Below are positions 6,669-29,475 of a stretch of 64,000 bases of DNA, one piece after another. Each line of letters opens with the position of its first letter. Position 1 is the first letter of the stretch. The notes beneath the pieces were generated by a model that searched no databases, had not been told where the DNA came from, and saw only the letters and a program-made list of their open reading frames with translations. The stretch is from positions 10,039-74,038 of the forward strand of contig JASJDM010000030.1 of assembly GCA_030065125.1 (NCBI GenBank), in the 5' to 3' direction. A program made the position numbers and the translations under genes. This DNA comes from Lysobacterales bacterium (GTDB lineage: Bacteria > Pseudomonadota > Gammaproteobacteria > Xanthomonadales > SZUA-38).

Positions 6669-6708
6669 TTGGAGTCGCGGCGGTCGCTGATGAAGTGCTG
6701 GCCATCGC

Positions 6709-6800
6709 CCAGCCGAGGTGCTCGAAGTTCCGGACGCCGGACATTACAAGATGCACACGAGATCGTGATTCCGGCACTGTTGAAGCACCTAAAAAACTAG
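6709..6800 (+). pseudogene. Remnant of an alpha/beta-hydrolase C-terminus
   Basis: PAEVLEVPDAGHYKMH (6709-6756), then after a frameshift EIVIPALLKHLKN* (6759-6800). This matches the hydrolase catalytic-His loop and last helix; there is no upstream gene body. Confidence 0.4.
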
Positions 6801-6815
6801 TTTGGCGGTCGACCC

Positions 6816-6953
6816 TCAGGGCGTTGGCCGGCTCAACTCGTAACTTTCGTCAAGCCACTGGGTCCAGCGTTTTTCAGGCATGGGCTGTTCGGAGGAAAAC
6901 CGTGCTGTGATCCAGACCCCGGAGCCCACCTGGTAGTCATCGGGGTGTTGCTT
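6816..6953 (-). pseudogene. 3' remnant of an MmcQ/YjbR-family gene
   Basis: The frame reads KQHPDDYQVGSGVWITARFSSEQPMPEKRWTQWLDESYELSRPTP*, resembling the YjbR C-terminus (W-I-T/S...L-D-E-S-Y-E-L). No start codon; it is joined out of frame to the upstream fragment. Confidence 0.5.
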
Positions 6954-7231
6954 TAAAAAGCGGGGGGAAACTGGCCACCCTGGGTGAGCGTCGCGGCCAC
7001 GTCGATACGGTCTTCGACGATGTCCCCGATGCCGGTCAACCAGTACGGTTCGCCACTGTTATCGAAAACGAACCAGGCCACCCAGGCCTGCTCGTTGGGG
7101 AGAATCTCGATGAAGAATCCATGACCCGACTGTTCGGGGTTGTAGTAGGAGCCTGACCAGGTCGCATCGATCTGGAGCTGGGCCAGGGCTGTTCCACAAA
7201 GCAGGCAGCCGGCCGCAAATATGCCGCCCAT
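6953..7231 (-). pseudogene. Truncated secreted protein (N-terminal SGSxYxPxQSGHGF beta-domain)
   Basis: Signal peptide ...GTALA-Q, then WSGSYYNPEQSGHGFFIEIL...WFVFDNSGEPYWLTGIG...GGQFPPAF*. It stops mid-domain, where homologues I recall continue (..DV...WG). Confidence 0.55.
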
Positions 7232-7266
7232 GCTGTCGCCCCGGTTGGACCTTGTTGAAAAAAGCT

Positions 7267-8493
7267 TCAGGGCTGAAATTCCCCAGCATGTTGCGTCTCG
7301 CTTTGCGCGTTGCCTGGCAGCTTCTGATAGTCGAAAAGCTGCAGATCCACCCCGCCGCCATTCATGGAGCGTCCGATCTTCAGGGAAGCCAATGCATCGG
7401 CGTCCTGTTTCAGGTAGGCATTAAAAAACAACAGCTCCCAGGCGTTGCGATCTTCCCAGGAGCCGCCTTCGAAGACGTGGGTCTGGTCCACCAGTTCCAC
7501 CACGTAGGTAGGGCCGGACAACTGTTGCATGGCCGGCAGGATGAAATCTGATCGGGTTACCGTGTCCGCCGTGCCAAAGGCGCACAGCACCGGGGTCGTG
7601 ACCCGGTTCAATTCGACATTGTTCCTGCCGAACGCGAAGTGGTCCCAGATCAGTCGCTTGTGGCCGACCCAGGGCGCGGCCAGCACGGCGGCCTTGACCC
7701 GGGGGTCCACGGCGGTGGCGGAATGGCCCTGGAAACGGCCGCCCGCAGCAGCCAGCGCGGTGAATCCGCCGAAGCTGTGACCGGACACGCCGATATTGTC
7801 AGCATCGATGTGTGGACCGAAGGTTCTGCTCTCCAGCAGTGAGTCCACCAGGGCCCGGGTCAGCAGGGGCCTGAGAAAGGCAACGTGATCGTTATCCAGG
7901 CCGGCCACCCGGGTGCGGTCGTCGCCGTAGATGGGCACGGCCACGATGTAGCCATGGCGGGACAGGTCCTGGGCGTGGCCGATATCGAAGATGCCGTGGG
8001 CATCATTGCCGTGGGCCAGAACGATCAGGGGATACTTTTTCTCCGGGTCAGCAAAAACCGGGGATTCTCCCGGGGCCAGCATGTCCTCAAACCTTCCGTA
8101 TTGACCGCCATGGTAGGGGAAATCGTACGGGCTGGTTTCCTGGTCTGCCCTGGCAGGCCAGGTGACGAACGCGGCCACGGGCAGGCTGGTTCCTGCGGTG
8201 GGCCCATACACTGCGGGCTGGTTGGGAACAGGCGCTTCCACGATCCAGGCCGACTCCGGGTGCTGTAGAACTTCGGTGATGAAGCGATAGCGGCCTTCCG
8301 GGTCCCGCTTACCCAGCAGGATATCGTGCATGGCGTCGTCACCCAGGTCCCGGAATTCGGCTGCCACCGCCATGTTGGTGGACCCTACGGCATGGGGGCC
8401 GCGTCCCAGAGGCTCAAGTTCCCTGTGTCCGTTTTCCTTTCCGTAGCAGCTTAGGGAACCCGTCAACATCAACAGCGTGAAAATTCTGATCAT
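7267..8493 (-). CDS. Exported alpha/beta hydrolase (dienelactone hydrolase/PAF-AH-like)
   Basis: Signal/lipoprotein-like N-term, GPHAVG, YPLIVLAHG, nucleophile GHSFGG, DPRVKAAV, FGTADT (Asp), QTHVF (His). Confidence 0.8.
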   Translation of the reverse strand: MIRIFTLLMLTGSLSCYGKENGHRELEPLGRGPHAVGSTNMAVAAEFRDLGDDAMHDILLGKRDPEGRYRFITEVLQHPESAWIVEAPVPNQPAVYGPTAGTSLPVAAFVTWPARADQETSPYDFPYHGGQYGRFEDMLAPGESPVFADPEKKYPLIVLAHGNDAHGIFDIGHAQDLSRHGYIVAVPIYGDDRTRVAGLDNDHVAFLRPLLTRALVDSLLESRTFGPHIDADNIGVSGHSFGGFTALAAAGGRFQGHSATAVDPRVKAAVLAAPWVGHKRLIWDHFAFGRNNVELNRVTTPVLCAFGTADTVTRSDFILPAMQQLSGPTYVVELVDQTHVFEGGSWEDRNAWELLFFNAYLKQDADALASLKIGRSMNGGGVDLQLFDYQKLPGNAQSETQHAGEFQP

Positions 8494-8706
8494 CTCAACC
8501 CGCTCAGCCAGAGTCCGTGAAAGTAAAGATCACGCTGCCGGTGCTGTCAAAGTGAAATTAGTTGGGCCGACCCATTCCGCTCTGGGTTGGCTGCACTGAA
8601 TCGTTTGTTTATGGCCAGCCGTGCCCGAAAATCCGGTCGCGACGGGACCTGGCTCAGGGCAATCTCCGCGCCTGAAAGCGCATTTGAGGCGGGAGCCTGA
8701 AACCCC

Positions 8707-8904
8707 TCAGATCATTCGGCTCTGTCCGAACCCCAGCACCTTCATGCAGTGCGGACAGAAGTACAGCACGTTTTTTCCTTCGATGAAGCCAACCCCTTTG
8801 GTCTTGGAGTACACCTCGGTCAGTCCCTTGTCGCAGTGGCAGCAGATGGGGGTCAGGTCGTTCCGGTTGATGATATTCAGGGGTACGGCGTTGGCTTTGC
8901 TCAT
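8707..8904 (-). CDS. Small zinc-ribbon protein (65 aa)
   Basis: MSKANAVPLNIINRNDLTPICCHCDKGLTEVY...LYFCPHCMKVLG: two CxxC knuckles; AGGTG RBS-like sequence upstream. Confidence 0.65.
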   Translation of the reverse strand: MSKANAVPLNIINRNDLTPICCHCDKGLTEVYSKTKGVGFIEGKNVLYFCPHCMKVLGFGQSRMI

Positions 8905-9034
8905 GGCTGGCACCTGTAGTTCAGGCCTTAATCAACAGTCGGCCTGAAATGCCTCGCCGTCAATCGGTAGTTTCCAGTCTTGGGTGGAAGATTCGCCGAG
9001 GATGCCGTCGTGCAAGAAGGGCGGGGTGGTCAAG

Positions 9035-10291
9035 CTATCGGCTGACGATGGGCGGAAACATGGCGCTGGGTCGGTCGAAAGAAACCTGCCTGATGTCACT
9101 CCAGGACACGTAGCTTGGCGATTCATCATTGCGCCCCAGGACCAGCATGCCGGCATTGCCGGGTCCCAGGTCGTCCCGGCGCTCCAGGTTCAGGCTTTCA
9201 CCGCTGTGCAGGGTCACGCCCACGTAGTCCCGCCCGGCGTCCCCGCCGCCCTGTTGTATCGACTCGATCATGCCGAAGGGAATGGTGTAGTGAATGCCCC
9301 GGGACGGGGCGTCCAGGGTTTCGACGGAAAGGTGCTCATCCAGGTCGAACACCAGCCGGCCGTTGAGGCGCCGGCCATCGGTCAAAGTCACGCTGCCGGA
9401 CAGTTCCTGGGCGACGGGAAAGTCTCCATAGCCCGGGCCGCTATGCGGGGCGGGGTTGAGATCCAGGCGCTGAAACGCGCCCCAGGAAACCAGCACGCGG
9501 CCGAAGCGAGGGTCGTCCACGTAAATTCCTCGGTTGTTTTCGCCAGCCTCCCGGGTGCCAGACAGTACTACGGTGCTGCCGTCGTTCCGGGTGACTTGTG
9601 AACTCTCGCCGAATCGCTTTTCGATGGACTGGATGGTGTCAAACCGGAGGCTGGTTTTGCTTTTGTTGGCGTGGCCGTCCAGGGTGTCGGTGGCCAGGCA
9701 GGCTTCGCGGTTCCACTGGATATAGCCGGTGAATGCGCCCTCCGCCGTGAACACCGTGCCGTGCAGTCGATCAGGCGCTTCAGCCAGAACCGGCGTCGGG
9801 CGGAACTCGATGCTGCGAATCTTCCACTCGTCAAACCTGTGTTGCTCGTGCCCGTCCCAAAGCTGCAGGCCGTCGGCGAAGTCATCCGCTTCGAATCGGT
9901 CCAGGTTGAATACCAGGTTATTCTTGAGCGTCACGGTCAGGTCGCGGCCGTTGGCTTCGATGGTGGCGATGTCGCCAAAGCGGACCATCAGCGGCCGCGC
10001 CAGGTTCATGGACCGTTCACCGAGTTTCAATCCGAGAATGTGTACCGGACGCTTCTCTACCAGCTGCTCCTGGGGGACCAGTTCAGCCCAGGCATTCCCG
10101 GTTTTGCGGCTGTTGAAGTAGTGGCCCCAGAATGCCTCTTCGGCCTCTCCAAAACGAAGTCGCCCCTGGTGGGTGGTCCCGTCGGTCAAGGTGACGGTGC
10201 CGTAAAGAAACCCCTGGCCGTCGTCTGCCCGCGTGGAGGTCACCAGCAGGAGGCCTGTCAGGAGGGTGAGGATGCAGGAAAGTGTTTTCAT
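9035..10291 (-). CDS. Secreted hypothetical protein with three internal repeats
   Basis: Signal peptide MKTLSCILTLLTGLLLVTSTRA. Repeats start YGTVTLTDGTTHQGRL, HGTVFTAEGAFTGYI and SGSVTLTDGRRLNGRL, each followed by FxxIxS/TIE-like and W...F motifs. Confidence 0.75.
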   Translation of the reverse strand: MKTLSCILTLLTGLLLVTSTRADDGQGFLYGTVTLTDGTTHQGRLRFGEAEEAFWGHYFNSRKTGNAWAELVPQEQLVEKRPVHILGLKLGERSMNLARPLMVRFGDIATIEANGRDLTVTLKNNLVFNLDRFEADDFADGLQLWDGHEQHRFDEWKIRSIEFRPTPVLAEAPDRLHGTVFTAEGAFTGYIQWNREACLATDTLDGHANKSKTSLRFDTIQSIEKRFGESSQVTRNDGSTVVLSGTREAGENNRGIYVDDPRFGRVLVSWGAFQRLDLNPAPHSGPGYGDFPVAQELSGSVTLTDGRRLNGRLVFDLDEHLSVETLDAPSRGIHYTIPFGMIESIQQGGGDAGRDYVGVTLHSGESLNLERRDDLGPGNAGMLVLGRNDESPSYVSWSDIRQVSFDRPSAMFPPIVSR

Positions 10292-10358
10292 TGGACCCAT
10301 GGTTGCCTTTGATTGTAGCAACCAGGTGGCGGAGTTGAGTCAAATCCGGGGCGGCAGG

Positions 10359-11705
10359 TCAGCTCACCTCTGCGCCGGCCCGCTCCAGCATGCGATCCAC
10401 ACATTTCCCACTCTGCTCCACGCAGTCGTTGACGCCAATGCCACGGTAGGCATTGCAGTTCAGGAACAGCCCGGGCAGTTGATCAGCGGATTGGAAAAGA
10501 TTTTCCACCAGGGCCAGGTGGCCGACTCGATAATTCGGAATGCCCCGGGGCCAGGGTTGAACGAATGTGGTGTCCGGGGTTTCAGTGATGCCCATGGTTT
10601 GCTGCACGCCCCGCCGGGCGATCTCCACCAGTTCGTCCGGCTCCTTCAGGGCCAGCTCGGGATTGCGCTGGCCGCCGATCATGACCCGGACGGATTTGCT
10701 GCCCTCGGGGGCCCGGTCGCCGAAGATGGCGCTGTCCCATAACACCCCGAGGATATCCAGCCCGGCCGAGGCCGTGGTAAGCAGGCCAAACCCGTTCAGA
10801 GGATGTGTCAGCTTGTGATAGCCAAAGCCCACCACGGAAATGGGCGAATAGTTGATATGCTCCAGCTGTCCCGCCAGGCCGGCATCAACGGATCGCAGCA
10901 GGTCCGCGCTGACATAGGCGGGAGTCGCCAGCACCACGTTGTCGTAGGGCGCCTCGTCCGATATGCCCTGCAGGCGCCAGCGACCGTCGGCCAGGTCCAG
11001 GGCGGTGACGCTGGCGGACAGCCGCAGGTCATCCCCCATAAGTCCCGCCAGGTGATCGACAAAGCTGCTGACGCCGCCGACAAAGCTCATCAGCACGCCG
11101 CCGGGGCCGGCCTCTTTTTTGCGCTTGGCCAGCATGCCGCGGAACAGCCCGCCATGCTCCCGCTCCAGCTTCACCACCAGCGGGAACGCCGCGTTGACGC
11201 TGAGCTGTTCGGGTGTCGAGCCGAAAATGCCGGCGGACATGGCGTTGAGGAACACGTCGGTGAACTGCGGCCCCAGCCGCCGATCACCAAAACTCTTGAG
11301 GGTCTCTTCTTCGTCGGACTGCCGCGGCTTGATCCAGAATTCCCGGGCCACCCTCAGCTTGCCGCCCAGGGTCAGCAGTTTCGTCTTCAGAAATGCGCCC
11401 GGGCCATCGGGCAAACGATGGATGGCATCGGTGTAGACATAGCGGATTCTGGCCGCATCATTGCTGCGCAGCAGCAGGTGCTCAGCCCCGGCCGCCCGCA
11501 CCAGTTCGCCGGTGGCGGGTTTGTTGTCCAGGTAGCCGTTGCTGCCGCGCTCGAAGATAAAGCCGTCCTGGTGCACGGACCGCATGGTGCCGCCGGGCTG
11601 GGCTTCGCGCTCGTACACGTGGACCGTCCAGTCCGGCTGCTTCTGCCTGAGGAGAAAGGCGGTGGCCAGGCCGCTGATGCCGCCGCCGATAATGGCTGTT
11701 CTCAT
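10359..11705 (-). CDS. hemY: FAD-dependent protoporphyrinogen/coproporphyrinogen oxidase (HemY type)
   Basis: IIGGGISGLATA, ERGSNGYL, GFGLL, LGVLWDSAIFGDRAPEG, RVMIGG, WPRGIPNYRVGH, NAYRGIGVNDC. Confidence 0.88.
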   Translation of the reverse strand: MRTAIIGGGISGLATAFLLRQKQPDWTVHVYEREAQPGGTMRSVHQDGFIFERGSNGYLDNKPATGELVRAAGAEHLLLRSNDAARIRYVYTDAIHRLPDGPGAFLKTKLLTLGGKLRVAREFWIKPRQSDEEETLKSFGDRRLGPQFTDVFLNAMSAGIFGSTPEQLSVNAAFPLVVKLEREHGGLFRGMLAKRKKEAGPGGVLMSFVGGVSSFVDHLAGLMGDDLRLSASVTALDLADGRWRLQGISDEAPYDNVVLATPAYVSADLLRSVDAGLAGQLEHINYSPISVVGFGYHKLTHPLNGFGLLTTASAGLDILGVLWDSAIFGDRAPEGSKSVRVMIGGQRNPELALKEPDELVEIARRGVQQTMGITETPDTTFVQPWPRGIPNYRVGHLALVENLFQSADQLPGLFLNCNAYRGIGVNDCVEQSGKCVDRMLERAGAEVS

Positions 11706-11833
11706 GGCGCAGTTTATCGTCGAACTACGTAACTAATTCAAGTAGTGCAATATACGGCGTTACCATGGCCCTGCTTGCTCTGAATTGTTGGGCGGGTACG
11801 GGCGCGGTGGAAGTTCAGATATTGGGAGTGGTA

Positions 11834-12757
11834 ATGATTCGATTTCTAGCCGGATTCTTGATGCTGTTGATGCTGCTGTCCATTGCGGGGGCCTTTTACC
11901 AGTCCAGCAGTGAATCCAGTGACCTTGCGACGTTCCCGCCACCGGGCCAATTCGTGGATGTGGGTGGCCATCGGCTGCACCTGGTGTGCCAGGGGAGCGG
12001 TGGACCCACCGTGGTACTGGAATCCGGGCTGGGTAATGACGTCAATTTCTGGTCAGAGGTCATACCCCCGGTGGCGAAGTTCACCCGGGTTTGCGCCTAT
12101 GACCGGGCTGGATTGGGCTGGAGCGACGCCGGGCCAATGCCGCGCTCGGCACCTCGAATTGTCGATGAGCTTTCAATTCTGTTGAAGAATTCTGGCGAAG
12201 CACCGCCCTATATCCTGGCCGGCCATTCCAATGGTGGCCCATACGTGCGGTTGTATGCATCAAGCTATCCGGATCGCGTTGCCGGTCTGGTACTGGTGGA
12301 CCCAAACCCGGAGACCAAACCGGGCTGCAGTCCGCTGCCGCAGCCGGCCAGGACAATCTACGGCGTGCTGGTGACCATGGCACCTCTCGGCGCACCCCGG
12401 CTGGCACTGCCGATGCTGTTTCCCCTGGATAACTCACCGCTGAAGCCTGCTGGCAGAAAAGCCCACGGTGCGCTGCGCGCAAGAACCAGCGCGTTGCGGG
12501 CTGTGTGGTCCGAGACGAAACAGACGTGCGACATGCTGGACGCGGTGCGTGCCGCTTCAGCACCGGCGATTCCTACCATCGTGCTTGTGGACCAGCCGGA
12601 TGGGGACTCTGCCCAGTGGCAGCGAGAGATGGCGGACCAGATTGGGGCCCAGGAGGTCATTGTTGCTGACAACACGACACACTGGATACAGCTGGACCGG
12701 CCGGAGCTGGTGGTCGACTCGATCCGCCGCCTGGTTGAACGGGCTGCGCCCCCGTGA
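11834..12757 (+). CDS. Alpha/beta fold hydrolase with N-terminal membrane anchor
   Basis: PPPGQFVDVGGHRLHLVCQGSGGPTVVLESG, YDRAGLGWSD, GHSNGG nucleophile, THWIQLDRPE His motif. Confidence 0.88.
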   Translation: MIRFLAGFLMLLMLLSIAGAFYQSSSESSDLATFPPPGQFVDVGGHRLHLVCQGSGGPTVVLESGLGNDVNFWSEVIPPVAKFTRVCAYDRAGLGWSDAGPMPRSAPRIVDELSILLKNSGEAPPYILAGHSNGGPYVRLYASSYPDRVAGLVLVDPNPETKPGCSPLPQPARTIYGVLVTMAPLGAPRLALPMLFPLDNSPLKPAGRKAHGALRARTSALRAVWSETKQTCDMLDAVRAASAPAIPTIVLVDQPDGDSAQWQREMADQIGAQEVIVADNTTHWIQLDRPELVVDSIRRLVERAAPP

Positions 12758-12764
12758 TGAGCAA

Positions 12765-15700
12765 CTAGGGCTGGATCACCAGTGCCGGATCACCCAGCAG
12801 GGCGTAACCCAGGATCACGTCTTCCCGGCCGGGGTGAGCCGCGGCCATGGTCTGCTTGGCCTGGAGGATCGCTTCACCCAGGGTGACGCCGGGGGTCAGC
12901 ACCAGGGGCAGGCTGAGGTTGCTCAGCAGCTGCTCCGAGGACAGGCGGGTCAGGGATACCGGGCCCAGTACTGCAGCGGCGCCGTAGTCACCACCCACCA
13001 GGAATCGATGGGACAGGGTGTCCGCCTGGGGCGACACGTAGTACGTGTTCCAGCAGCCCCACTGGTTGACCACTGTGGGCAGCCCCGCGTTGGACAGCGT
13101 ATCGATGTCGTTGGACGTCAACAGCCGGTCGGTGCGTCCCCATTCGGTGAATCCGGAATGGCCGAAGTAGTTGGTCAGGGCCGCTCCGGCCTCAATGCCC
13201 GACAGGATCTGCTGCTGAGCCTGGGCCGGCGTGATCTCGTCCAGGTAGGCGCTGGTGATTTCCCAGCCCTGGAGCAGTTCCGTGGCAATGTCGTCGCTGA
13301 TGGCGCTGAAAGGCGTCAGCGGCTCGGCCTTGTCAGCGGCAAACACCGCGGTCAGGTCGTATTCCTTGGTGGCGTATTGCAGGGTCTTGCTGATCATCCA
13401 GTCCAGTTCCTGCAGGGTTCGCACCGGGAAGCGACCGATGGCAACGTCGGGCACCATGTCGCCGGTGTAGTCAGCCAGCACCGCGTCCAGCGGGGCGTAG
13501 CGCACCACCTCGTGGACCTGGCCGTAGACCGAGGGGATGAAGCTCAGCGACCCAAGGCCCAGGTAATCCTGGTAGTCGTAGGAGTCGCCGCCCACCAGCA
13601 GCACGAAACGCGCGCCCAGGTGCCCGGCCGCCACGGTGATGTAGCGCTTGATGGCCAGAGGATCCACCATGCCGTGACCGTAGCGCTGGTACAGGTCATT
13701 GACGTTGACCACCTTGACGCTCAGGCCGTTCCGGGTGTGGTGGTCGACCAGCGGCGACAGCCCGTTGGTGAAGGCCGGGTGGGTGATGACCAGGTAGTCT
13801 GCCGACTCGGTGTCCAGGCTCTGGTCGAACACCACGGGCGTCGGCTGGACAGGAACCAGGGCATCCGCCTGGGAGATCACGTAGGACCTCGCATCCAGCC
13901 CCCCCGGAACCTGCAGGTCGTAGCCCGCGCCATCCGGCGAAGTGGTGGCGTCGGGCAGCCAGACTGGTCCGGTTTCGGTGATGGCGTAGGCCACCACGTC
14001 GCTGGACGTCAGGCCGCTGACCACGAACGAGGCGTCGGGCAGGTCCTCGAAGGTCGCCCGGAACAGGGTATCGGGAGAAGGTGTCGGCGCTTCCGCGCGC
14101 CAGTCGCCGGCGGTATTTACGTCCAGTTCCCCGGCACCATCGATGGTCAGGTCAGTGGTGTAACTCAGGGCAACCGATTCAACGTTGACCAGGTCGAACA
14201 GGGCACCGGTATCTCCCGGCAGGCGAACCGTGACGGTGTTGTCGCCGTCCAGCAGCAGCCCCTCGGCCACGCTGGCTTCGATAGTCGCCGGGGTCAGGCC
14301 GTCCAGGAACAGCTCGGCCACCTGGGTGCCGTTGACCAGGACCTCCACGTGGTGGTCTGGGTTTTCGGCCAGGTCCGTGACGCCCCACAGTTCCACGGTC
14401 AGGGTGGCGCCGCCGCTGCTGCGATCGCTCAAGTCCAGCGCAAACTCGGCCTGGTCGGGCCCGCCGAAGGAGAACAGATCTTCCAGGAACCAGGGGTCAC
14501 CATTGGGCGAGGCAAAACTGTACTGCCGGTTATGGTCCATGACCAGGCTGCGCGTCTGGCTGGCCTCGGCATCTGGCGTGGTGGCCAGGGATTCCAGCGT
14601 GTCCATGCGGGCCGCCATACCAGGATCCAGCAAGACCCGGTAGACGTTGTCGCTGCTGTACAGGCTGTCCCGCGGCTGACCGATAAACTCGATGAATTCA
14701 CCGGGGCCGAAGGAGTTCCCGGAAAGGCGCAGCGGGATCGGTTTTCCGGCCAGGGTCACGGCCAGCTGATCGACGCTGGCGCCATTGACGGGCAGGCCGG
14801 CAGACTCCAGCTGCTCATAGCTGACCCGGACCACGCCGCGCTGATTCACCGACAGGTTGACCGCGTCCGCGCTGCCGGGCAATCCCAGCGGTACCTCTTC
14901 AAGCTGCGTGCGTTCCAGGCTGTCCCGGATGCTGCTCCAGTCAATGGTCGCCGGCGGTCGGTCATCGCCGTACAGCCGGCCCAGCTCGAAAGGCCCGTGC
15001 AGTGTTTCATTGCCCTTGATGTCGATGTCCGACAGCCAGAGCTGATCGTTCAGGATGCCCGGAAGTTCCAGGCTGTACTGCTGCCACTCGGTGGAATCCA
15101 CCACCCGGGAGGGCACCAGGCTGTGCAGGCGTCGCATGCCGGTGCCGTCGGCTCCGTAGATGAAGAATCCGACATTGCCGGTTTCCGTGGCCGTGCCCCA
15201 GCGCAGGCTCAAGCCGCCGCCTGATACCTCGGCCCGGAAGTAGGCCAGGGTCACGGGAGTGGTGGTGACGCCGCCGTTGTAGAACCCGAAGTCCAGTTCG
15301 GTGACGGCCGTTCCGGCAACGCTGCTGCCGGCCGGCTGCACGCCCAGGGTCAGGGCCTGGGTCGTCTGGAAATAGCCCTCCAGCCTCGAGCCGGTGGCAT
15401 CGGTTCCCAGGATGTAGTCGCCGGGCGGCAGATTGTCGAACAGGTAGTCACCGCCGGCGTCGGTCACCGTCATGCCGAACACCGGGTCGTCCGGATCCAG
15501 CAGGCCGTCACCATCCAGGTCACGATACAGCACAACGGCCACGCCGCCCACGTCCGGCTCTCCGGGGTTGTCCACACCGTCGTTGCTGATGTCTTCGAAC
15601 ACGGTGCCCGCCAGGCTGATGGCCGCCGGGGCGGTCACCCCAAAGTCGGCATACAGCGGGTTCTGGTTGGCCGGGGTGATGGACAGCGGCAGGGGACTGG

Positions 15701-18700
15701 GCTGGGCGTTATCGTTCAGCCCTGGCGTGCCGGCGGTGGGCACGGTGCCTTCCAGGACGGATCCGGCGCCGAAATCGGCCGGGGCCAGCCGCACCAGGTA
15801 ATCCTCCTGGGCCACGCCGCCAAACTCGTACTCGCCGTTGACGTCGGTGGTTTCGGTGCGGATCAGGTTGTCGATACCCGGGGTGATGATGTTGTCGTTG
15901 TTGACGTCCAGCCACAGCTCCACCGTTACGCCCTCGATGCCGGACTCGCCGGTCTCGCGGACACCATTGCCGTTGACGTCATGGAACACCTGGTCTCCGA
16001 TGGACCCCTGGTCGGATGCCGGTGAGAAGCCGAAGTCCGCGCCGTTGAAATCCTGTCCCGACGCCAGGCTGATGGTGCCCGGGGCAGTAGCGGTGGGGTT
16101 GAGGCCGGACAGTACGCCGCCGGTGTCGGACAGGCGAACCTGGTAGTCGCCCGGACCCAGGCCGGTAAAGTCATACTGACCGTTGCCGTCGGTGACAGCG
16201 CTGGCGGACACCACGTCATCGGCAGTTCCGAACACGCCGTCAACACCAGGTTCCACGAGGTCTACGGTGACGCCGCCGATGCCTCCCTCGCCGGCATCCT
16301 GGGTGCCGTCGCCATCACTGTCGAGGAACACAGTGTCGCCGATGGAACCCAGCGGGCTCAGAGGCTGGAATCCCCAGTCCAGCAGCACGTAGGCAGTATC
16401 CGACAGGGCGGTAAGCTGGTAGGTCTCCAGGGCGTTGGTGGGGGCGGTGTTGAATCCGGCCGGCAGCGTGGATACATCCACCGTCACGAAGTAATCATCA
16501 GCGGGCAGTCCGGTAAAGGCATAGTTGCCGTTGCCGTCGGTCACCGCGCCGACTTCCAGGTCGTCACCGGTGCCCAGCTGGCCGTCCGCTCCGGCGCCCA
16601 CCAGGTTGATGGTGACACCGGCCAGCCCGGCCTCGCCGGGGTCTTCCACGCCGTCGCCGTCGGCGTCGATCCACACACGGTCACCGATCAGCGCAGTCGC
16701 CGTATCAGGCCGGTAGCCGAAATCCACCGTGTCCACGTTATCTCCGGCGCCCAGAGCAATCACCGCGCTGGGATCGGTCAGGCCGGTGGTCAGCGAGAGA
16801 CCCGCCGGAACACTGGCGTCTGCCACGTCCACGAAGTAACGTCCCGCCGGCAGATTCTTGAAATCGAAGTTGCCCAGCTGATCGGTCACCGTAGTGTCGA
16901 AGAGCAGGTCGTCACCGGTGCCGGCCAGGCCGTCAGGGCCGGCGTCGAACAGCTGCAGGGTAACCCCGCCAATACCGGGTTCGCCGGCTTCCTGAACGCC
17001 GTCGCCGTCTGCGTCCAGCCAGACAAAGTCACCCAGGCTGGCGCTGCCGCGGAAAGGGGCATAGCCAAAATCCAGGTCGGTGATATCGTTTCCGGCGCTG
17101 ACCGAGACGTTGATGTTGTCCAGACCGCTGGTCAGCCGGTAGTCGCCCAGCACGTTGTCACGGTCCGTAACCTCAACGCGGAAATCCCCATCCGGCACGT
17201 CCGGGAACTGATAGTCGCCATTGGCGTCCGTGATGGCGGTCGCGATGAGCAGGTCGTCGGCGGTTCCAAGGATGCCGTCGGGTCCGGCCGCATACAGTTC
17301 GATGGTGACGCCCGGGAAACCGCCTTCACCGGCGCCGTCATCGACGCCATCCCGGTCCAGATCCTCGAACACGTTGCCAGAGATGTCGGCCAGCGCGCTG
17401 TTCTGGAATCCGTAGTCCGCGGTGAGAACGCCGCCGTTGCCGCCGCTGAGCACCACGTCGATCTGGGCACCGCTGGCGTTGGCCCCGCCCTGGGAGTCAC
17501 CGGTGGTGAGGACCGCGCCGGCCAGTGCAGGCTGGGCCGGATCCAGCGAGGTGAAGTAGGTGCCGAATGGCAGGCCGCGGAAGCCGTAGATGCCGCCGCC
17601 GTCGGTCTGGGCATTGTTCACCGGGGTATCGACCGTGCTGTCGAAGACGAAGTCGCCGTTGTCGCGGAACAGGCTGACATCGACGCCGGGAATCAGCGAC
17701 TCACCGGGGTCGCGCACGCCGTTGCCGTTGGCGTCGGAGAACACCTCGTCGCCGATCAGGCCGGGCTGGTTGAAGCCAAAGCTGTCGTTGTCCACGTCAA
17801 AGCCGGCCACGGTGACGCTGGTGACCCGGTTACGGGCGGCGGTGGTGGTGCCGCCGCGGCCGGACAGGTTGCCCAGCAGGTCGCTCAGCACGATCTGGTA
17901 GTCGCCGTCGGGCACGCCGCTGAACGTGATGTTGCCGTCCGGGTCGGTCACGGTGGTGGCCACCACGTTGCCGGAGCTGTCCACCAGGTTCACGGTAATC
18001 CCGGCAATGCCCTCCTCGGTGGACTCGCGCAGGCCGTTGCCGTCGGGGTCGAACCAGATACTGTCGGTGATTGTGGCCAGGAAAGGGTTGTTATAACCGA
18101 AGTCCACCTCGGTGAGGGTGTCGCCAGCATTGACGGTAAACGGCAAGCTCAGGTTGCCACCGGTGGTGGAGCTGTATCCCGCCAGGGCGCCGCCGGTGTC
18201 GGTGACCGCCACGGTATAGGTGCCAGGCGGAACGCCGGTGAACAGGTAGCTGCCGTCCGGGCCTGTAGTGGTGGTCGCTATCACCGCACCGGTATCGGCA
18301 TTGCGCAGTTCCAGGGTGACGCCGGCAATGCCGGGTTCGCCCGGATCCTGGATGCCGTCCCCATCGGCATCCGAGAACACCTGGTCTCCAACCACCGCAG
18401 TACCCGCCTGGGGCACGTAGCCGAAGTCGGCGTTCAGGAACTGCTCGGTGCCGGTGACCAGGAAAGGTCCAGCCGGGTTGCTGCTGGCAGGACCAGCCTG
18501 CAGCCCAGCGGGCAAGGTGGAGACGCCCACCCGGGTCTGGTAGCTGCCCGTGGGAAGGTTGGCGAACAGGTAGCCGCCGTTGAGGTCGGTCTGCTGGCTG
18601 TCCAGCACCACGTCATCGCCGTTGCCGAAGATGCCGTCCGGGCCCGGCCCCACCAGTTCCACGGTAACGTTGGGCAGGCCGGCCTCACCCAGGTCGAAAA

Positions 18701-21700
18701 TGCCGTCGCCGTCGGCGTCGAGCCAGACGCTGTCTCCGATCTGGCCGCCGAAGGGCCGCACCGGATCCAGCACCTCGGCCACCGTGGGCACGCTCTGGTC
18801 GGAGTCGGCTGAGGCCAGGTTGCGGATGGCCAGGATGTTGGAATCCAGCGGGTCGTTGACCTGGACATCGAAGGTAACGGTCATCGTCTGGCCGGGATCC
18901 AGCACCAGGTTGTCCAGGGTGGTGACCAGGTTGGCCGGGTCACCGTCATCCAGTTCGTTGGTGCCGACGCCATCGTTGTCCAGGGTGACGGGGCCGGTCG
19001 TGGCGCCCTCTATCCGTACGTTGTCAATGCTGACGCTTTCTGTGCCGCGGAATCCGGCCGCGCGGAAGCGGACCAGGGTGGAGGAGGTCAGGAATGCCGC
19101 GGGTATGGGTACGGTAATGGTGCCGTTGTTGTTATCCGGGTCACCGCCCACCGGCAGGGTACCGCCAGGCGTGGTATCCAGCTCCACGTAGCTGCTGCCG
19201 CCATCGTTGGAGACGTCCACCCACAGGCAGTCGTCCACGTTGCCGAAGTCCTCGCCGTTCGTGCCGGGGGTGCAGGCCTCGGTGTTACCGTCAAAGTCAA
19301 AGTCGAAGGTCACCGTGGCGCTGTCCAGCCCGGCCAGGTTCACCTCGCGAATCAGGGCGTCGAAGTCCTCAATGCCGTCATCCGAATCCGGCCGGTCGAA
19401 GTTGAGCTCGCCGCCAGCGATAAAGACGTCACCCGCGGTTGGGCCGTTGGTGGTCACAGTAAACGGTGGCCCACCATTGCGCTCTTCCTCGGTCCAGCTG
19501 TCACCCCCGAGCCCCCCGGGGCTCCCGGCTCCCCAGGTGGAGGCGCACAACGGTTGCGAGCCGTTGTTGGTGTTGCCGTAGGACTGGGTGGTGAAGTCGT
19601 CGCAGTACTCCACCGCCACCGAGCGGAAGCCTTCCACCACCGTGGAGTTCGCTATGTAGCTGGTGCCCAGGGGCAGGGGGTCCAGGATCCGGATGCCGGT
19701 ATGGCGGACGATGTCGTTGTTGGTCAGGGTCAGCGTGTAGGTAATGGTCTCGCCCGGGGTAACCTCGGCGTTGGCGCTGGAAGTCTTGACCAGGCTGAGT
19801 GGACCCATGACCACGGGAACGGCGGCGGTATCGGAGACAATGAAGTCTTCGCCATCGCCGGTGGTGCCACTGACCTCGGCGACGTTGATGACGCTGCCGG
19901 GGAAATCACTGGCCTGGACGGTGTAGCTGGCGTTGATGGTGACCGTTTCGCCGGGCGCCAGCAGCCGATTGCCGCTGGCATCGGTTTCGCTCCCGAGTTC
20001 GAACAGGCTGAGCGCATCCTCTGCCCTCACAGTGTCACAGTAGACCGCAGCCTTGTAATACTTGCCCTGCCAGTCCTGGGTGGTATCCGTGGGCAGGACA
20101 GCCGTGCTGAGCTGATTGCCGAAGCCGAACCGGTAGTTGGTGCTCCAGTCGCTGAAGCCTCCAGTCGCACCGAGGCTGGCGGTGTCCACCGCGATGCCAT
20201 CCTGGTACAGGGTGACGGCACCGGATTCTTCCACCACGGCCAGCAGGTGAGTCAGGTCGGTGGAAACCGAGGCGGCGCCGGTGGTCAGGGTTCCCGTGGT
20301 GCCGCCGGTGGTGCTGATCTCGAAGCCAAACTGGTCGTTATCCTGGTAAAGGCTGAAAAACACATCATTATTGCCGCCATCGGACAGGGTCATGATTCGC
20401 GCCGGTCCGCTCTGGAAGGCGCCCGGTGCCTGGACCCAGGCCTCCACGGCCAGCCTGCCTTCGGCCTGGCACTCGCCGGCGATCTTGGCGGTCGATGAGC
20501 TGTCGCCTGAGATCCGGGTAGCCGCGCCGCTGATGTCAATACGCTCGGGATCCAGTTCGTAAGTCACCGGTGAGGGATCTTCGATGGTGAGATCCTGGGC
20601 GGTCAGGAAACCGGACCGGTCGCGAATAACCAACGGATCCGGGCCCTGGCTGAAATCGTACAGCGCCACCGCATCCGGGAACTGGTCGGGGAAGCTGAAC
20701 ATTCCGATCTTGTCGTCTACCAGCTGGTTCAGGATCACCGGCTCGGGGGAAATGTTGGTGACGTCGTAGGTGTAGTTGATCACACCGCCCACGGGGGCCT
20801 CGGTGACGTCGGGCGTTTTGACCACCGACAGCGGCAGCACGCTGAACGTGGTTTCGGTGGTGGTGGTGTTATAGCTGCCCACCTCCCAGCTGTCGGTGTA
20901 ATCGGCCCGCACCGTGTTGGTGAACGGGAAGCTGGCCAGCGGATCGATGGTCACCGATAGCTGCACGCTGCCGGACTCGCCCGCCAGCACCGTCTGGTCG
21001 ATATTGAAGGTCACCACGCCGCCGGTTTCCGAGCAGGTGCCGGTGTATGGCGCGTCGATCTGGCAGGACACGTAGTTCAGGTCCGCCGGCAGGGTGTCGG
21101 TGAGGACCAGGTTGCGTGCGGCGCCCGGCTTCAGGTCATCGTCCGAGATGTTTTCGAAGGAAATGCTGTAGGTTAGCGGATCGCCGGGAGCGGCGGCCAC
21201 GACCTGGTCATCCTTGATCAGCTCGATCACCGGAATCGGTGGGATCTGGTTGAACTGCGGCACGTCCTCCTGGCCGTCCTGGGCCAGCTGGTTGTTGGAG
21301 CTCAGGCAGGACACGATGGCCCACCACCCGGCATCGGGGTTGTCGATGATGTCGCCGTCCCGGGTGGTCTGGGTGCCGTTATTGTTCCAGGTGGTGCCTC
21401 CGGACACGGTACCGGCGATGCCGCCGATCAGGCCGTTGGGGTCCACCGGACTCAGCGGCGGGTAGTAGGTCACCCGGGTGTTGCCGTCCATGTCGAAGTT
21501 GTTGAACATGATGGATGGCTCACCCTCAGGGACAAACTCATACAGGGTGTTGCACTGAACGCCGCCGGTATCCTGCTGGAACGAGTACTGGTACAGGCCC
21601 ACCAGCAGCTCATCGTCGGATCCGGGGACCAGGTCGGGATCGTCCCAGTTGGCCGGGAACGGATTATTGGGGTCGGCGTCATTATCCAGGCCCACCCGCA

Positions 21701-22259
21701 GGCGCCAGGAGTTCTGGTCGTCCTGGCGGGATTCCGATCGCAACACGTACTCGCCACACTGCACCGGAGCGGGCAGGGTGAAAGCACGCACCCACTGCTC
21801 CGGGGTCGACAGCACCGGAAAGTCCAGGCTGGAGATTGATCCCGCGGCACCCGGGGCAGGTGTTGCCGGGCTGACCACCGCGGTGCCTGCGTCGTAAAGC
21901 TCAAAGGTGGTCGTGCCGCGGCCCGAGCCGTTGGGTTCATCCAGCGGCAGGTTGTTGGTGTTCATCTCCGGGCTGAAGATGTCGATATGCAGGTCTTCCG
22001 AGGCTGGCCAGCTGCAGGGCACGTAGATGCCCACGTAGTGGAAGCCGCCGCCAACGCCGTTGGCCGAGGAGGTATACCAGTCGCCCAGGCCGATGGCTGC
22101 GTCCGACGAGTTGGTCTGGATAAAGAACGGGTCGCCGGGTGGAGGAATCTCCACGGCACGGGCAGACACCGCCCAACCCACCAGGGCGGACAGCGCGAGA
22201 CACGACGCAATGTTATGCAGGCGTCTGATGATTGAAGACTTCCTTGAACTCAAGTCCAT
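12765..22259 (-). CDS. Giant secreted adhesin-peptidase: signal peptide, unknown N-domain, DUF11-type domains with inserted LamG and beta-sandwich domains, 10 SdrD B-like repeats, C-terminal C25 (gingipain-like) cysteine peptidase
   Basis: 3170-aa ORF (ATG 22259 preferred; TTG 22277 possible). Signal ...VGWAVSARA. DUF11 motifs (PGDPLTYSISFEN, LTDTLP); LamG (AVEAWV, LTHLLAV); ten IGDxVWxDxDGDG...DFGY repeats. C25 motifs ADYLVIT, FVLLVGGD, PDVAIGRFPVRT, NYFGHSG (His 13158-60), QWGCWN (Cys 13053-55), LLGDPAL. Confidence 0.9.
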   Translation of the reverse strand: MDLSSRKSSIIRRLHNIASCLALSALVGWAVSARAVEIPPPGDPFFIQTNSSDAAIGLGDWYTSSANGVGGGFHYVGIYVPCSWPASEDLHIDIFSPEMNTNNLPLDEPNGSGRGTTTFELYDAGTAVVSPATPAPGAAGSISSLDFPVLSTPEQWVRAFTLPAPVQCGEYVLRSESRQDDQNSWRLRVGLDNDADPNNPFPANWDDPDLVPGSDDELLVGLYQYSFQQDTGGVQCNTLYEFVPEGEPSIMFNNFDMDGNTRVTYYPPLSPVDPNGLIGGIAGTVSGGTTWNNNGTQTTRDGDIIDNPDAGWWAIVSCLSSNNQLAQDGQEDVPQFNQIPPIPVIELIKDDQVVAAAPGDPLTYSISFENISDDDLKPGAARNLVLTDTLPADLNYVSCQIDAPYTGTCSETGGVVTFNIDQTVLAGESGSVQLSVTIDPLASFPFTNTVRADYTDSWEVGSYNTTTTETTFSVLPLSVVKTPDVTEAPVGGVINYTYDVTNISPEPVILNQLVDDKIGMFSFPDQFPDAVALYDFSQGPDPLVIRDRSGFLTAQDLTIEDPSPVTYELDPERIDISGAATRISGDSSSTAKIAGECQAEGRLAVEAWVQAPGAFQSGPARIMTLSDGGNNDVFFSLYQDNDQFGFEISTTGGTTGTLTTGAASVSTDLTHLLAVVEESGAVTLYQDGIAVDTASLGATGGFSDWSTNYRFGFGNQLSTAVLPTDTTQDWQGKYYKAAVYCDTVRAEDALSLFELGSETDASGNRLLAPGETVTINASYTVQASDFPGSVINVAEVSGTTGDGEDFIVSDTAAVPVVMGPLSLVKTSSANAEVTPGETITYTLTLTNNDIVRHTGIRILDPLPLGTSYIANSTVVEGFRSVAVEYCDDFTTQSYGNTNNGSQPLCASTWGAGSPGGLGGDSWTEEERNGGPPFTVTTNGPTAGDVFIAGGELNFDRPDSDDGIEDFDALIREVNLAGLDSATVTFDFDFDGNTEACTPGTNGEDFGNVDDCLWVDVSNDGGSSYVELDTTPGGTLPVGGDPDNNNGTITVPIPAAFLTSSTLVRFRAAGFRGTESVSIDNVRIEGATTGPVTLDNDGVGTNELDDGDPANLVTTLDNLVLDPGQTMTVTFDVQVNDPLDSNILAIRNLASADSDQSVPTVAEVLDPVRPFGGQIGDSVWLDADGDGIFDLGEAGLPNVTVELVGPGPDGIFGNGDDVVLDSQQTDLNGGYLFANLPTGSYQTRVGVSTLPAGLQAGPASSNPAGPFLVTGTEQFLNADFGYVPQAGTAVVGDQVFSDADGDGIQDPGEPGIAGVTLELRNADTGAVIATTTTGPDGSYLFTGVPPGTYTVAVTDTGGALAGYSSTTGGNLSLPFTVNAGDTLTEVDFGYNNPFLATITDSIWFDPDGNGLRESTEEGIAGITVNLVDSSGNVVATTVTDPDGNITFSGVPDGDYQIVLSDLLGNLSGRGGTTTAARNRVTSVTVAGFDVDNDSFGFNQPGLIGDEVFSDANGNGVRDPGESLIPGVDVSLFRDNGDFVFDSTVDTPVNNAQTDGGGIYGFRGLPFGTYFTSLDPAQPALAGAVLTTGDSQGGANASGAQIDVVLSGGNGGVLTADYGFQNSALADISGNVFEDLDRDGVDDGAGEGGFPGVTIELYAAGPDGILGTADDLLIATAITDANGDYQFPDVPDGDFRVEVTDRDNVLGDYRLTSGLDNINVSVSAGNDITDLDFGYAPFRGSASLGDFVWLDADGDGVQEAGEPGIGGVTLQLFDAGPDGLAGTGDDLLFDTTVTDQLGNFDFKNLPAGRYFVDVADASVPAGLSLTTGLTDPSAVIALGAGDNVDTVDFGYRPDTATALIGDRVWIDADGDGVEDPGEAGLAGVTINLVGAGADGQLGTGDDLEVGAVTDGNGNYAFTGLPADDYFVTVDVSTLPAGFNTAPTNALETYQLTALSDTAYVLLDWGFQPLSPLGSIGDTVFLDSDGDGTQDAGEGGIGGVTVDLVEPGVDGVFGTADDVVSASAVTDGNGQYDFTGLGPGDYQVRLSDTGGVLSGLNPTATAPGTISLASGQDFNGADFGFSPASDQGSIGDQVFHDVNGNGVRETGESGIEGVTVELWLDVNNDNIITPGIDNLIRTETTDVNGEYEFGGVAQEDYLVRLAPADFGAGSVLEGTVPTAGTPGLNDNAQPSPLPLSITPANQNPLYADFGVTAPAAISLAGTVFEDISNDGVDNPGEPDVGGVAVVLYRDLDGDGLLDPDDPVFGMTVTDAGGDYLFDNLPPGDYILGTDATGSRLEGYFQTTQALTLGVQPAGSSVAGTAVTELDFGFYNGGVTTTPVTLAYFRAEVSGGGLSLRWGTATETGNVGFFIYGADGTGMRRLHSLVPSRVVDSTEWQQYSLELPGILNDQLWLSDIDIKGNETLHGPFELGRLYGDDRPPATIDWSSIRDSLERTQLEEVPLGLPGSADAVNLSVNQRGVVRVSYEQLESAGLPVNGASVDQLAVTLAGKPIPLRLSGNSFGPGEFIEFIGQPRDSLYSSDNVYRVLLDPGMAARMDTLESLATTPDAEASQTRSLVMDHNRQYSFASPNGDPWFLEDLFSFGGPDQAEFALDLSDRSSGGATLTVELWGVTDLAENPDHHVEVLVNGTQVAELFLDGLTPATIEASVAEGLLLDGDNTVTVRLPGDTGALFDLVNVESVALSYTTDLTIDGAGELDVNTAGDWRAEAPTPSPDTLFRATFEDLPDASFVVSGLTSSDVVAYAITETGPVWLPDATTSPDGAGYDLQVPGGLDARSYVISQADALVPVQPTPVVFDQSLDTESADYLVITHPAFTNGLSPLVDHHTRNGLSVKVVNVNDLYQRYGHGMVDPLAIKRYITVAAGHLGARFVLLVGGDSYDYQDYLGLGSLSFIPSVYGQVHEVVRYAPLDAVLADYTGDMVPDVAIGRFPVRTLQELDWMISKTLQYATKEYDLTAVFAADKAEPLTPFSAISDDIATELLQGWEITSAYLDEITPAQAQQQILSGIEAGAALTNYFGHSGFTEWGRTDRLLTSNDIDTLSNAGLPTVVNQWGCWNTYYVSPQADTLSHRFLVGGDYGAAAVLGPVSLTRLSSEQLLSNLSLPLVLTPGVTLGEAILQAKQTMAAAHPGREDVILGYALLGDPALVIQP
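15285..18750 (-). repeat. Ten tandem SdrD B-like (Cna-B/Ig) domain repeats, ~105-130 aa each
   Basis: Repeat starts QIGDSVWLD, VVGDQVFSD, TITDSIWFD, LIGDEVFSD, DISGNVFED, SLGDFVWLD, LIGDRVWID, SIGDTVFLD, SIGDQVFHD, SLAGTVFED; each ends in a D(F/W/Y)G(Y/F/V)-like motif. Confidence 0.85.
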
Positions 22260-22391
22260 ATTATTATCGGCCGGCAACGCATTAATTATAGGGGGATTTG
22301 CCTCTGGGACGCATTCCGGGCGATAAACAACTGTGAATTCTTGATGGCCGGTCGATGGATGGATTTTCCGGCCTGGGCGGATCTTTCCAGC

Positions 22392-23531: not shown

Positions 23532-25817
<2,286 letters not shown>

Positions 25818-28149: not shown

Positions 28150-28309
28150 TCGCTTTTTTCCGTGTTCGAGTTGGCGGTTGAGCCGCGTATTTTGCCGGGC
28201 GTCTGCAACAAGTTCACCTTGGATGTGATACAACTCATGGAGTTTTGCACTGAAAGGGCCAAGACGGTGGCCGTCCGTGCCCACGATTACTGCCGTACCC
28301 CGCGCTTCA

Positions 28310-29461: not shown

Positions 29462-29475
29462 GCCGTGTAACATCC

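Follow-up and report, generated by a model that had tools for sequence, protein, structure and literature searches.

The window analyzed here, a stretch of 64,000 nucleotides from the genome assembly of a Lysobacterales bacterium (GCA_030065125.1), carries on its minus strand a giant gene (12765..22259) encoding an adhesin-like protein that ends in a peptidase module of family C25, and this protein and its relatives are the subject of what follows. The gene comprises 3164 codons from an ATG at 22259 and a stop codon at 12765-12767. The same open frame reaches a TTG at 22277 (12765..22277, 3170 amino acids [aa]); the ATG is the likely start codon, an identical database protein, P0002, also being 3164 aa long. 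Read by eye from the translation, the N terminus following the ATG begins with basic residues, continues with a hydrophobic stretch, and reaches an A-R-A sequence followed by VE, which looks like a signal peptidase I site and not like a lipobox. The predicted Sec signal peptide would therefore be MDLSSRKSSIIRRLHNIASCLALSALVGWAVSARA, with VE behind it (22155..22259). All features of this gene given below lie on the minus strand, and residues of the full-length protein are numbered from the TTG.

Adhesin-type domains make up about 2,300 aa ahead of the C-terminal module. The first is an N-terminal domain of unnamed family (residues 42-355; 21213..22154), probably the distal tip of a stalk. A Pfam search at E≤1 returned no named family for this domain, or chance-level matches only, and the ESM Atlas yielded only unnamed clusters with low recognition; the domain recurs in 6 of 318 other proteins that carry the C-terminal module. 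It is followed at 19629..21200 by DUF11/TIGR01451-type repeats in two stretches (residues 360-462 and 834-883), a DUF7507 match, and a Laminin_G_3 domain (residues 597-749; 20031-20489), as identified by Pfam and NCBIfam. Residues 880-1180 matched no Pfam family at E≤1 beyond chance level. The remainder is a stalk of 10 SdrD B-like repeats (residues ~1179-2335; 15273..18743; PF17210, E = 5.7e-143), and the match to the SdrD model NF012181 likewise begins at residue 1179. The original prediction, made from the letters alone, had described a Sec-exported protein of about 3160 aa with an unnamed N-domain, DUF11, LamG, and 10 SdrD-B domains, and this description agrees with the Pfam results, the 3164-aa frame, and its Sec-like N terminus as judged by eye.

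Behind the stalk lies a module of 831 aa (residues 2340-3170; 12768..15260), for which AlphaFold2, given an alignment of 62 sequences, produced a model with a mean predicted local distance difference test score (pLDDT) of 89.9 and a predicted template modeling score of 0.90. According to this model and to the conservation of its motifs, the module starts with a beta-sandwich domain (14946..15260) that opens with T-P-V-T-L-A-Y-F at 15237-15260, where the motif had been placed originally, and carries a W..T..E..N.GF pattern. Its strands begin at module residue 3 and are modeled with a pLDDT of 87-95. This first domain is without counterpart in PorU, the sortase of the T9SS (type IX secretion system), alignments to which begin only at module residue ~130. 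Next come PorU-like N-terminal beta-sandwich domains (13809..14885), recognized by profile and structure alignment, which include a P-D-H-H motif conserved in relatives (D, 14355-14357; H, 14352-14354); module residue H303 is kept in 308 of 311 relatives. None of the noncatalytic domains of the module matched a Pfam family at E≤1, or did so at chance level only. The last part is a C25 catalytic domain (12777..13796; PF01364, E = 3.6e-58), in which residues 2828-3167 match profile positions 1-373 of 374 with 198 bits against a cut-off of 23.

The key residues of the catalytic domain are the Arg residues of G-R-F-P-V-R-T (13431-13433 and 13419-13421), F-A-A-D (13332-13334), the predicted catalytic His of NYFGHSG (13158-13160), and the predicted catalytic Cys of QWGCWN (13053-13055). 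In the alignments, G-H-S-G and G-C-W fall on the G-H and A-C motifs found in PorU, RgpB, and Kgp, in line with the claim that both catalytic residues are intact. A caspase-like C25 fold had been set beforehand as a test of the prediction, and the model superimposed on RgpB with a VIA-align Z score of 40.2 and a root mean square deviation (rmsd) of 2.1 Å over 314 residues (model residues 487-831). With Kgp the Z score was 37.3, and the rmsd for the two gingipains ranged from 2.1 to 2.5 Å over 314-316 residues. Profile score, modeled caspase-like fold, and His/Cys dyad together place the domain in family C25, and peptidase activity is predicted. The chain runs out where the C25 profile ends (...LLGDPALVIQP) and thus has no hydrophobic tail, LPXTG, or T9SS tail; the lack of a membrane anchor and of a T9SS tail had been proposed originally. 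No further domain lies behind C25, there is no other anchor at either end, and the sole T9SS-tail match (18.5 bits against a cut-off of 23) falls inside an SdrD repeat (residues 1422-1465).

Similarity to PorU extends well beyond the catalytic domain. The best Foldseek match of the module was latent PorU (6za2, "latent" being taken from the title of the PDB entry), with an E value of 8.5e-29 over 829 columns, followed by RgpB and Kgp. VIA-align superimposed model residues 130-831 onto PorU 38-789 with a Z score of 19.7 over 557 residues. PorU was also the sole solved structure found in a single-sequence search (E = 4.7e-6), and it ranked first in a family-profile search (E = 2.3e-45), ahead of RgpB (1.7e-25) and Kgp (9e-15), the profile alignment covering PorU residues 21-190 and 275-785. 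The region preceding the catalytic domain had originally been described as propeptide-like; instead, it corresponds by homology to the N-terminal beta-sandwich domains of PorU, starting at about PorU residue 21-38, and no match to a gingipain prodomain was seen ahead of the C25 domain. The module is therefore an extra TPVTL beta-sandwich joined to the equivalent of PorU from its mature N terminus to the end of its catalytic domain.

Individual motifs point the same way. G-R-x-P-V-R-T and F-A-A-D are common to the module and PorU, whereas RgpB has G-R-F-S-C-E-S and A-S-A-E instead. The Asp of G-E-S-D in RgpB is the Arg-binding S1 residue, and in the profile-to-RgpB alignment, which is a sequence alignment only, the corresponding position of the family holds no conserved acid. 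PorU has a sortase-like Arg that the gingipains are without, according to the available portion of PMC5445135; the second Arg of G-R-F-P-V-R-T, module residue R614, is a candidate for this residue.

The original prediction regarded this architecture as unusual, but it proved to belong to a very large family. When 1.84 billion representative proteins were searched in full with HMMER, 11004 protein clusters matched at E≤1e-3 and 3387 at E≤1e-30; the 150 clusters listed all have E below 1e-151. To describe conservation we used 318 relatives collected by their likeness to the module, so that the following counts apply to the top of the family and not to its whole. The end of the module coincides with the end of the protein, within 5 aa, in 236 of 271 full-length relatives. 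The catalytic His is present in 314/314 sequences, the Cys in 312/314, R610 (the first Arg of G-R-F-P-V-R-T) in 316/316, and R614 in 291/316. The junction T-P-V-T-L-[A/S]-x-F is also well kept (P in 255/266, V in 249/269, T in 242/269, L in 239/272, and A/S in 240/272). By contrast, the passengers ahead of it vary and include SdrD_B, DUF11, GEVED, Calx-beta, nuclease, subtilase, and beta-helix domains or no known family. In this very large family the module is the constant C terminus and the part ahead of it varies; the window protein is a member of this unstudied family, not a singular oddity.

Modules without a passenger are rare, with 50 aa or less ahead of the module in 3 of 249 Met-started relatives (5th percentile, 227 aa); one protein, P0264, consists of a signal sequence followed directly by the module. 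Two others have departures from the usual order: P0202 (1554 aa) holds two protease units in tandem with a TPVTL domain between them, and P0193 has a TPVTL-like domain behind its C25 domain. On account of these two proteins, the TPVTL domain must be seen as a mobile domain and more than a junction piece. Nine relatives (P0025, P0035, P0039, P0048, P0055, P0057, P0063, P0080, and P0160) have an extra short tail after the module with the motif D-G-F-E-S-G-D-x-S-A-W-S, and a low-confidence loop of the model (module residues 383-405) holds an F-E-D stretch that resembles this tail motif. Literature searches on C25 together with SdrD or Chloroflexi, on PorU homologues outside Bacteroidetes, and on autoprocessing of C25 adhesins found no description of this architecture. 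PMC13635244, considered as a C25 paper, was dropped since "c25" is a sample label there.

A search of a species-level genome collection gave 362 matching stretches. The best 80 of these were all metagenome-assembled and came from Lysobacterales and other Gammaproteobacteria, Acidobacteriota (mostly Thermoanaerobaculia), Chloroflexota (Anaerolineae), and a few others; the closest among them, titled Lysobacterales, Pseudomonadota, or uncultured Gammaproteobacteria, are at 54-55% identity. Within the window's own order, 80 of 201 genomes and 34 of 74 genera have a module match at E≤1e-20, with 1-6 matches in each positive genome, often in tandem. The window genome itself encodes another module protein of 1276 aa on contig C89 (L083 [C89:30000-46000], 6661-10491), in which a TPVTL-type module lies behind an unrelated front of 430 aa; a TonB-dependent receptor gene follows this gene. 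It further encodes a stand-alone PorU-like protein of 810 aa with a signal peptide and without the TPVTL domain (contig C124; L001, 1234-3666), as well as a 533-aa frame whose C25 match is only weak and partial and in which no signal peptide is evident (contig C74; L004, 769-2370).

Machinery of the T9SS was searched for in genomes that carry the module. SprA (TIGR04189) was not found in the window genome, an assembly of 6.5 Mb in 138 contigs that is 94.8% complete; a Thermoanaerobaculia genome and a Chloroflexi genome, both with the module, likewise gave no match. The search itself works, as a Bacteroidota genome that also carries the module gave an SprA match of 841 bits. Models for GldM and GldL found no match in the window genome, but these results carry no weight since both models also failed in the SprA-positive control genome. 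The sole Por_Secre_tail match of the window genome (23.4 bits, just above the cut-off; G000:C51:8050-8226, plus strand) lies in a giant frame of 3192 aa and is probably located inside an adhesin repeat, like the 18.5-bit match of the window protein. The expectation that the protein is exported without a full T9SS is thus borne out as far as SprA and a tail-like C-terminal domain (CTD) are concerned, neither having been found, and independence of the module from the T9SS is supported.

A link to another type of gene emerged from the neighborhoods of related modules. For the window and 77 related loci, the open frames lying up to 5 kb from the module gene were clustered; the related loci were drawn from the best 80 of the 362 stretches, all found with one peptide pattern. 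Downstream sequence of 2.2 kb or more was available at 66 loci, and in 46 of these a lasso cyclase gene (Asn-synthase-like, ~640 aa) lies next to the module gene, within 5 kb. It opens within 100 nucleotides (nt) of the module stop codon and on the same strand in 28 of the 46, lies further downstream in 13, and is found upstream only in 5. NCBIfam identifies this neighbor as a lasso-peptide isopeptide-forming cyclase with 360-397 bits, below the exception cut-off of 525 for NF033535. According to NCBIfam and Pfam, the cyclase is followed by genes for a kinase related to HprK (weak matches), a lasso chaperone of the PqqD type, and a lasso B2 protease. Between cyclase and kinase, a precursor open reading frame was found in 36 loci (31 by a strict pattern), with a leader of the form ..P-Y-x-x-P-x-L-x-x-x-G-D-x-R-x-x-T-[LM] and a core of the form G-[GPA]-[ST]-x-G-x-G-[DE]-S-G.... 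Judging from these patterns, Gly1 and Asp/Glu8 of the core would fit an 8-residue ring. In the kinase-type cluster of Bradymonas, the site phosphorylated by BsfK is core position 3, which matches the conserved Ser/Thr3 here (PMC10368454, accessible part). Many cores also have a basic residue 1-4 positions before the C terminus; such a residue would suit trimming by a C25 enzyme, yet the profile alignment places no conserved S1 acid at the RgpB position.

Linkage of module and lasso genes differed among groups, being seen in 25 of 29 loci of Acidobacteriota, 15 of 19 of Chloroflexota, and 3 of 13 of Gammaproteobacteria/Pseudomonadota. Module genes often form tandem arrays of 2-4 beside a single lasso cluster, as at L030 and L063 (on one contig) and at G015:C7, G055:C5, G022:C45, and G136:C236. 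Literature searches on lasso peptides with C25 or gingipain, and with Acidobacteria, Chloroflexi, or kinase, returned no lasso-C25 link, PMC10368454 being covered without its supplements.

The window genome has such a kinase-type lasso cluster, with the same type of precursor, on another contig (L082 [G000:C131:172000-190000], 7256-15293; identified by Pfam and NCBIfam). In this locus, a PF14907 nucleotidyltransferase gene is followed by the genes for the cyclase (8386-10164), the 60-aa precursor (10196-10375), the kinase (10382-11302), B2 (11292-11687), PqqD (11684-11974), and an ATP-binding cassette (ABC) transporter. The precursor reads PYERPQLTHRGDVRDVTM up to the cut, the leader ending in VTM, and GPTPGVGESGNPTNFRP after it. 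It has the traits of the lasso class, i.e., a YxxPxL leader, Thr at position -2, Gly1, and Asp/Glu at 7-9, together with a cyclase, B1, and B2, and it is flanked by Asn_synthase, Transglut_core3, and PqqD genes. Beside the cluster lie UDP-sugar dehydrogenase and epimerase genes and a second Asn synthase gene.

To see how kinase and module are distributed, the kinase of this cluster was searched in the same 201 genomes of the order. Both were found in 57 genomes, the module only in 23, the kinase only in 8, and neither in 113. At a module threshold of E≤1e-90, which was picked after seeing the data in order to remove generic C25 matches, the respective counts were 55, 11, 10, and 125. The pattern recurs within families at this threshold: the window's own family has both in 13 genomes and neither in 1; family f9 has both in 8 and neither in 16; and family f4 has both in 14, the module only in 4, the kinase only in 1, and neither in 6. 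The distance between the kinase and a module gene is 2-4 kb in at least 13 genomes of the order, and several genomes with this arrangement are assembled into 1-10 contigs. Of the 65 kinase-positive genomes, 63 have one kinase match and the other 2 have two, but module genes are generally several. That several module genes exist for each cluster argues that the lasso peptide serves the module proteins and that the module is not a mere tailoring enzyme of the cluster. Synteny elsewhere and co-occurrence in the order show that module genes are genetically tied to the kinase-type lasso cluster.

Apart from the giant gene, the window contains a second adhesin-like protein of 1528 aa (40671-45257, plus strand) with SdrD_B, DUF11, and DUF7507 domains in Pfam and no C25 domain. 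It ends in PVPTLGAWGLLLMSLLLMAAAGRALRGSR, i.e., VPTLGAWG, a hydrophobic helix, and a basic tail of the IPTL-CTERM type. TIGR04174 matched this tail with 19 bits in hmmscan and 25.3 bits in the genome search, and the exosortase-substrate model NF033207 matched it weakly (27 bits against a cut-off of 45). In four members of the window's family (G000:C131:208449-208526, G020:C5, G030:C6, and G067:C19), the contig with the lasso kinase also carries, ~20-26 kb away from it, a frame of 416-449 aa that matches IPTL-CTERM strongly; this probably represents plain conserved gene order. Unrelated neighbors on the plus strand are a DUF4915 and tetratricopeptide repeat protein (2617-4944), the catalase-peroxidase KatG (23541-25817), and a resistance-nodulation-division efflux pair (HlyD-type adaptor and AcrB-type pump; 28277-32601). 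Directly around the giant gene lie a convergent alpha/beta hydrolase gene 8 nt away, an amine oxidase gene, katG, and unnamed small frames; no link of these flanking genes to the adhesin gene was found, and they are not common to the orthologous loci L005-L009. Promoter and terminator scans of both flanks gave nothing decisive. Two marine-sediment metagenome runs of one study contain at least half of the sampled words of the stretch, and one of them may be the source sample; no RNA runs containing the stretch were listed.

Taken together, we favor a reading in which a Sec-exported adhesin stalk carries a PorU-type C25 end-module that works without a T9SS in a job involving the lasso peptide, and we give it a probability of about one half. 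After Sec export, the stalk would position the enzyme on a surface or particle, where the module could act as an endopeptidase or transpeptidase outside the cytoplasm. The exported lasso peptide, probably phosphorylated at Ser/Thr3, would then be a substrate of the module (by trimming or transfer of its tail), an acceptor, or a regulator. Several points weigh against this reading. No biochemical activity is known for any family member, and the protein, at 330 kDa, would have to cross the outer membrane. Since lasso maturation is cytoplasmic and the module is exported, direct contact could occur only after export of both. A lasso gene is adjacent to the module gene neither in the window nor in its five closest orthologous loci, and only 3 of the 13 gammaproteobacterial or pseudomonadotal loci are linked. 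The 77-locus sample is biased by its origin in the best 80 of 362 stretches, a single peptide pattern, and metagenome assemblies alone. In the order, no kinase match was found in 23 of the 80 genomes that have a module (11 of 66 when the stricter threshold is applied), and 8-10 genomes have the kinase alone, so the tie is not obligatory. The two-by-two counts also overstate it because related genomes are not independent, and weak kinase matches (E values of 1e-8 to 1e-10 with partial coverage) may be other P-loop proteins.

A different possibility, the one put forward in the original prediction and in our view rather unlikely, is that the C25 domain cuts its own chain at or just before T-P-V-T-L and releases the stalk or transfers the new C terminus of the stalk to a surface acceptor. 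The module would then be a single-use device, akin to a CTD and PorU built into one chain. Self-cutting of a giant protein by a clan CD domain has precedents in the C80 domains of MARTX and of the large clostridial toxins. The position of the module at the extreme C terminus behind unrelated passengers in 236 of 271 relatives, the near-invariant T-P-V-T-L junction, the scarcity of passenger-free modules (3/249), and the lack of any other anchor at either end of the window protein would all be in keeping with such self-processing, as would the description of PorU as a transpeptidase in the consulted part of PMC5445135. However, TPVTL would make a poor cut site because it forms the first beta-strand of a domain that is modeled as confidently folded (pLDDT 87-95). 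Moreover, this type of domain also occurs behind C25 in P0193 and between protease units in P0202, and in P0264 the module comes right after the signal sequence. No acceptor is known, genomes carry 1-6 copies that are often in tandem, and the tie to the lasso pathway points to another substrate or partner.

Comparably doubtful is the simpler view of a plain extracellular degradative protease that digests environmental proteins in marine sediment for food while its stalk holds it on particles or prey, the lasso cluster being a coregulated antimicrobial or merely traveling along, without a biochemical link. The stretch was found in marine-sediment metagenomes, C25 members are discussed as extracellular sediment peptidases in the accessible part of PMC6752024, some relatives fuse the module to nuclease or subtilase families, and gingipains likewise combine a protease with adhesin domains (PMC5445135, in the part at hand). 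Set against this, the module is PorU-like and not gingipain-like in its sequence, domain order, and motifs, and the profile sequence alignment gives no conserved acid at the S1 position of RgpB. A degradative role would also leave unexplained the strict C-terminal position and invariant junction of the module as well as the operon-like lasso arrangement (28 loci at ≤100 nt) across three phyla.

The two ideas of sorting and lasso partnership could also be combined. The module would then be a T9SS-free sorting device that cuts at T-P-V-T-L and hands the passenger to an acceptor, with the exported phosphorylated lasso peptide serving as acceptor or licensing switch. We consider this improbable as a whole, but if true, it would amount to sorting of a new type, with a ribosomal peptide natural product as the partner of a sortase-like enzyme, and the system would serve many secreted proteins of Acidobacteriota, Chloroflexota, and Gammaproteobacteria.

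Very little speaks for the module as the missing sorting enzyme of IPTL-CTERM proteins. VPTLGAWG does resemble T-P-V-T-L-A-x-F, both motifs lie directly behind similar passengers, and the window genome has two IPTL-CTERM matches above the cut-off. Yet IPTL-CTERM occurs in 128 of the 201 genomes of the order, including families free of the module: 3/4 genomes of f5, 2/2 of f6, and 8/24 of f12 have it, against 0/4, 0/2, and 0/24 for the module. The window genome also has an exosortase-family gene, and the tail of the 1528-aa protein weakly matches the exosortase-substrate model. The module as an IPTL-CTERM sortase was accordingly rejected on distribution across the 201 genomes. Least likely is an ordinary T9SS part or cargo (a PorU orthologue or gingipain whose T9SS was missed by a draft assembly of 138 contigs and 94.8% completeness), for although the best family-level matches are the PorU models NF033707 and NF052324 and one Bacteroidota genome has both module and SprA, the PorU model scores 127 bits against 420, the later domains and CTD of PorU are lacking, SprA was found neither in the window genome nor in two of three other module genomes, and the genome's only Por_Secre_tail match is a marginal 23.4 bits in another giant frame.

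Thousands of secreted proteins from phyla without a T9SS, none of them characterized, have an enzyme of the PorU type as their constant end. If the module sorts or processes proteins, this would represent a major unrecognized route for surface proteins in bacteria of sediment, soil, and wastewater. The conserved tie also gives this class of lasso peptides a possible physiological partner and is the most useful new handle on the function of the module. Relatives within the order whose assemblies consist of 1-3 contigs make the question of one enzyme and one peptide testable.

Among known systems, the lasso genes most resemble the bsf kinase-type cluster of Bradymonas sediminis as described in the consulted text of PMC10368454, which has a cyclase, a discrete PqqD (B1), B2, an HprK-like kinase, and a YxxPxL leader, as here. 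The clusters linked to the module often add a PF14907 nucleotidyltransferase, and their precursors have the usual Thr at leader position -2 instead of Ile. The bsf cluster is bounded by an FG-GAP protein gene and ribosomal genes, and that text describes no C25 gene with it.

With the SdrD-type MSCRAMMs (microbial surface components recognizing adhesive matrix molecules) of Gram-positive bacteria, which are attached through LPXTG by sortase A, the window protein shares its B-type repeats. The underlying logic is similar as well, in that a Cys/His transpeptidase would act on the C-terminal end of a surface adhesin. In sequence, the resemblance goes no further than the repeats, the SdrD model NF012181 scoring 286.6 bits against a cut-off of 2500. 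Unlike SdrD, the window protein is without LPXTG and a membrane-spanning tail, and its enzyme has the C25 fold instead of that of a C60 sortase and is part of the same polypeptide.

The gingipains RgpB and Kgp (1CVR, 4IEF, and 4RBM) have the same catalytic fold with aligned His and Cys and likewise unite a protease and adhesin-type domains on one polypeptide. As far as the available part of PMC5445135 describes them, a prodomain comes first in them, the adhesin domains lie behind the protease, and a T9SS CTD forms the end, whereas in the window protein the adhesin precedes the protease and nothing follows it, neither IgSF/adhesin domains nor a CTD. In sequence and domain order, the alignments place the module nearer to PorU than to the gingipains.

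PorU of Porphyromonas gingivalis (6ZA2) is, according to the same partial source, a transpeptidase and the first sortase identified in Gram-negative bacteria, with the T9SS being present only in some Bacteroidetes (PMC5445135). It shows the same order of N-terminal beta-sandwich domains and C25 catalytic domain as the module and has in common with it the G-R-F-P-V-R-T, F-A-A-D, G-H, and C motifs and the L-x-G-D-P ending, at an identity of only ~16-17%. PorU residues 786-1158 (~370 residues, including the CTD) are without counterpart, the window protein ending at the equivalent of PorU 785 in a PorU chain of 1156 residues, and the NCBIfam PorU models score well below their cut-offs (NF033707, 127.2 bits against 420; NF052324, 98.1 against 450). 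Because of the missing CTD and further domains and these low scores, the alignments identify the module as a relative of PorU and not as a PorU. Whereas PorU is a stand-alone protein held on the surface by PorV (PMC5445135, available part), the window module has an additional TPVTL domain in front and is fused behind an adhesin of 2,300 aa, and it is best described as a C25 module that is PorU-like, independent of the T9SS, and joined to an adhesin.

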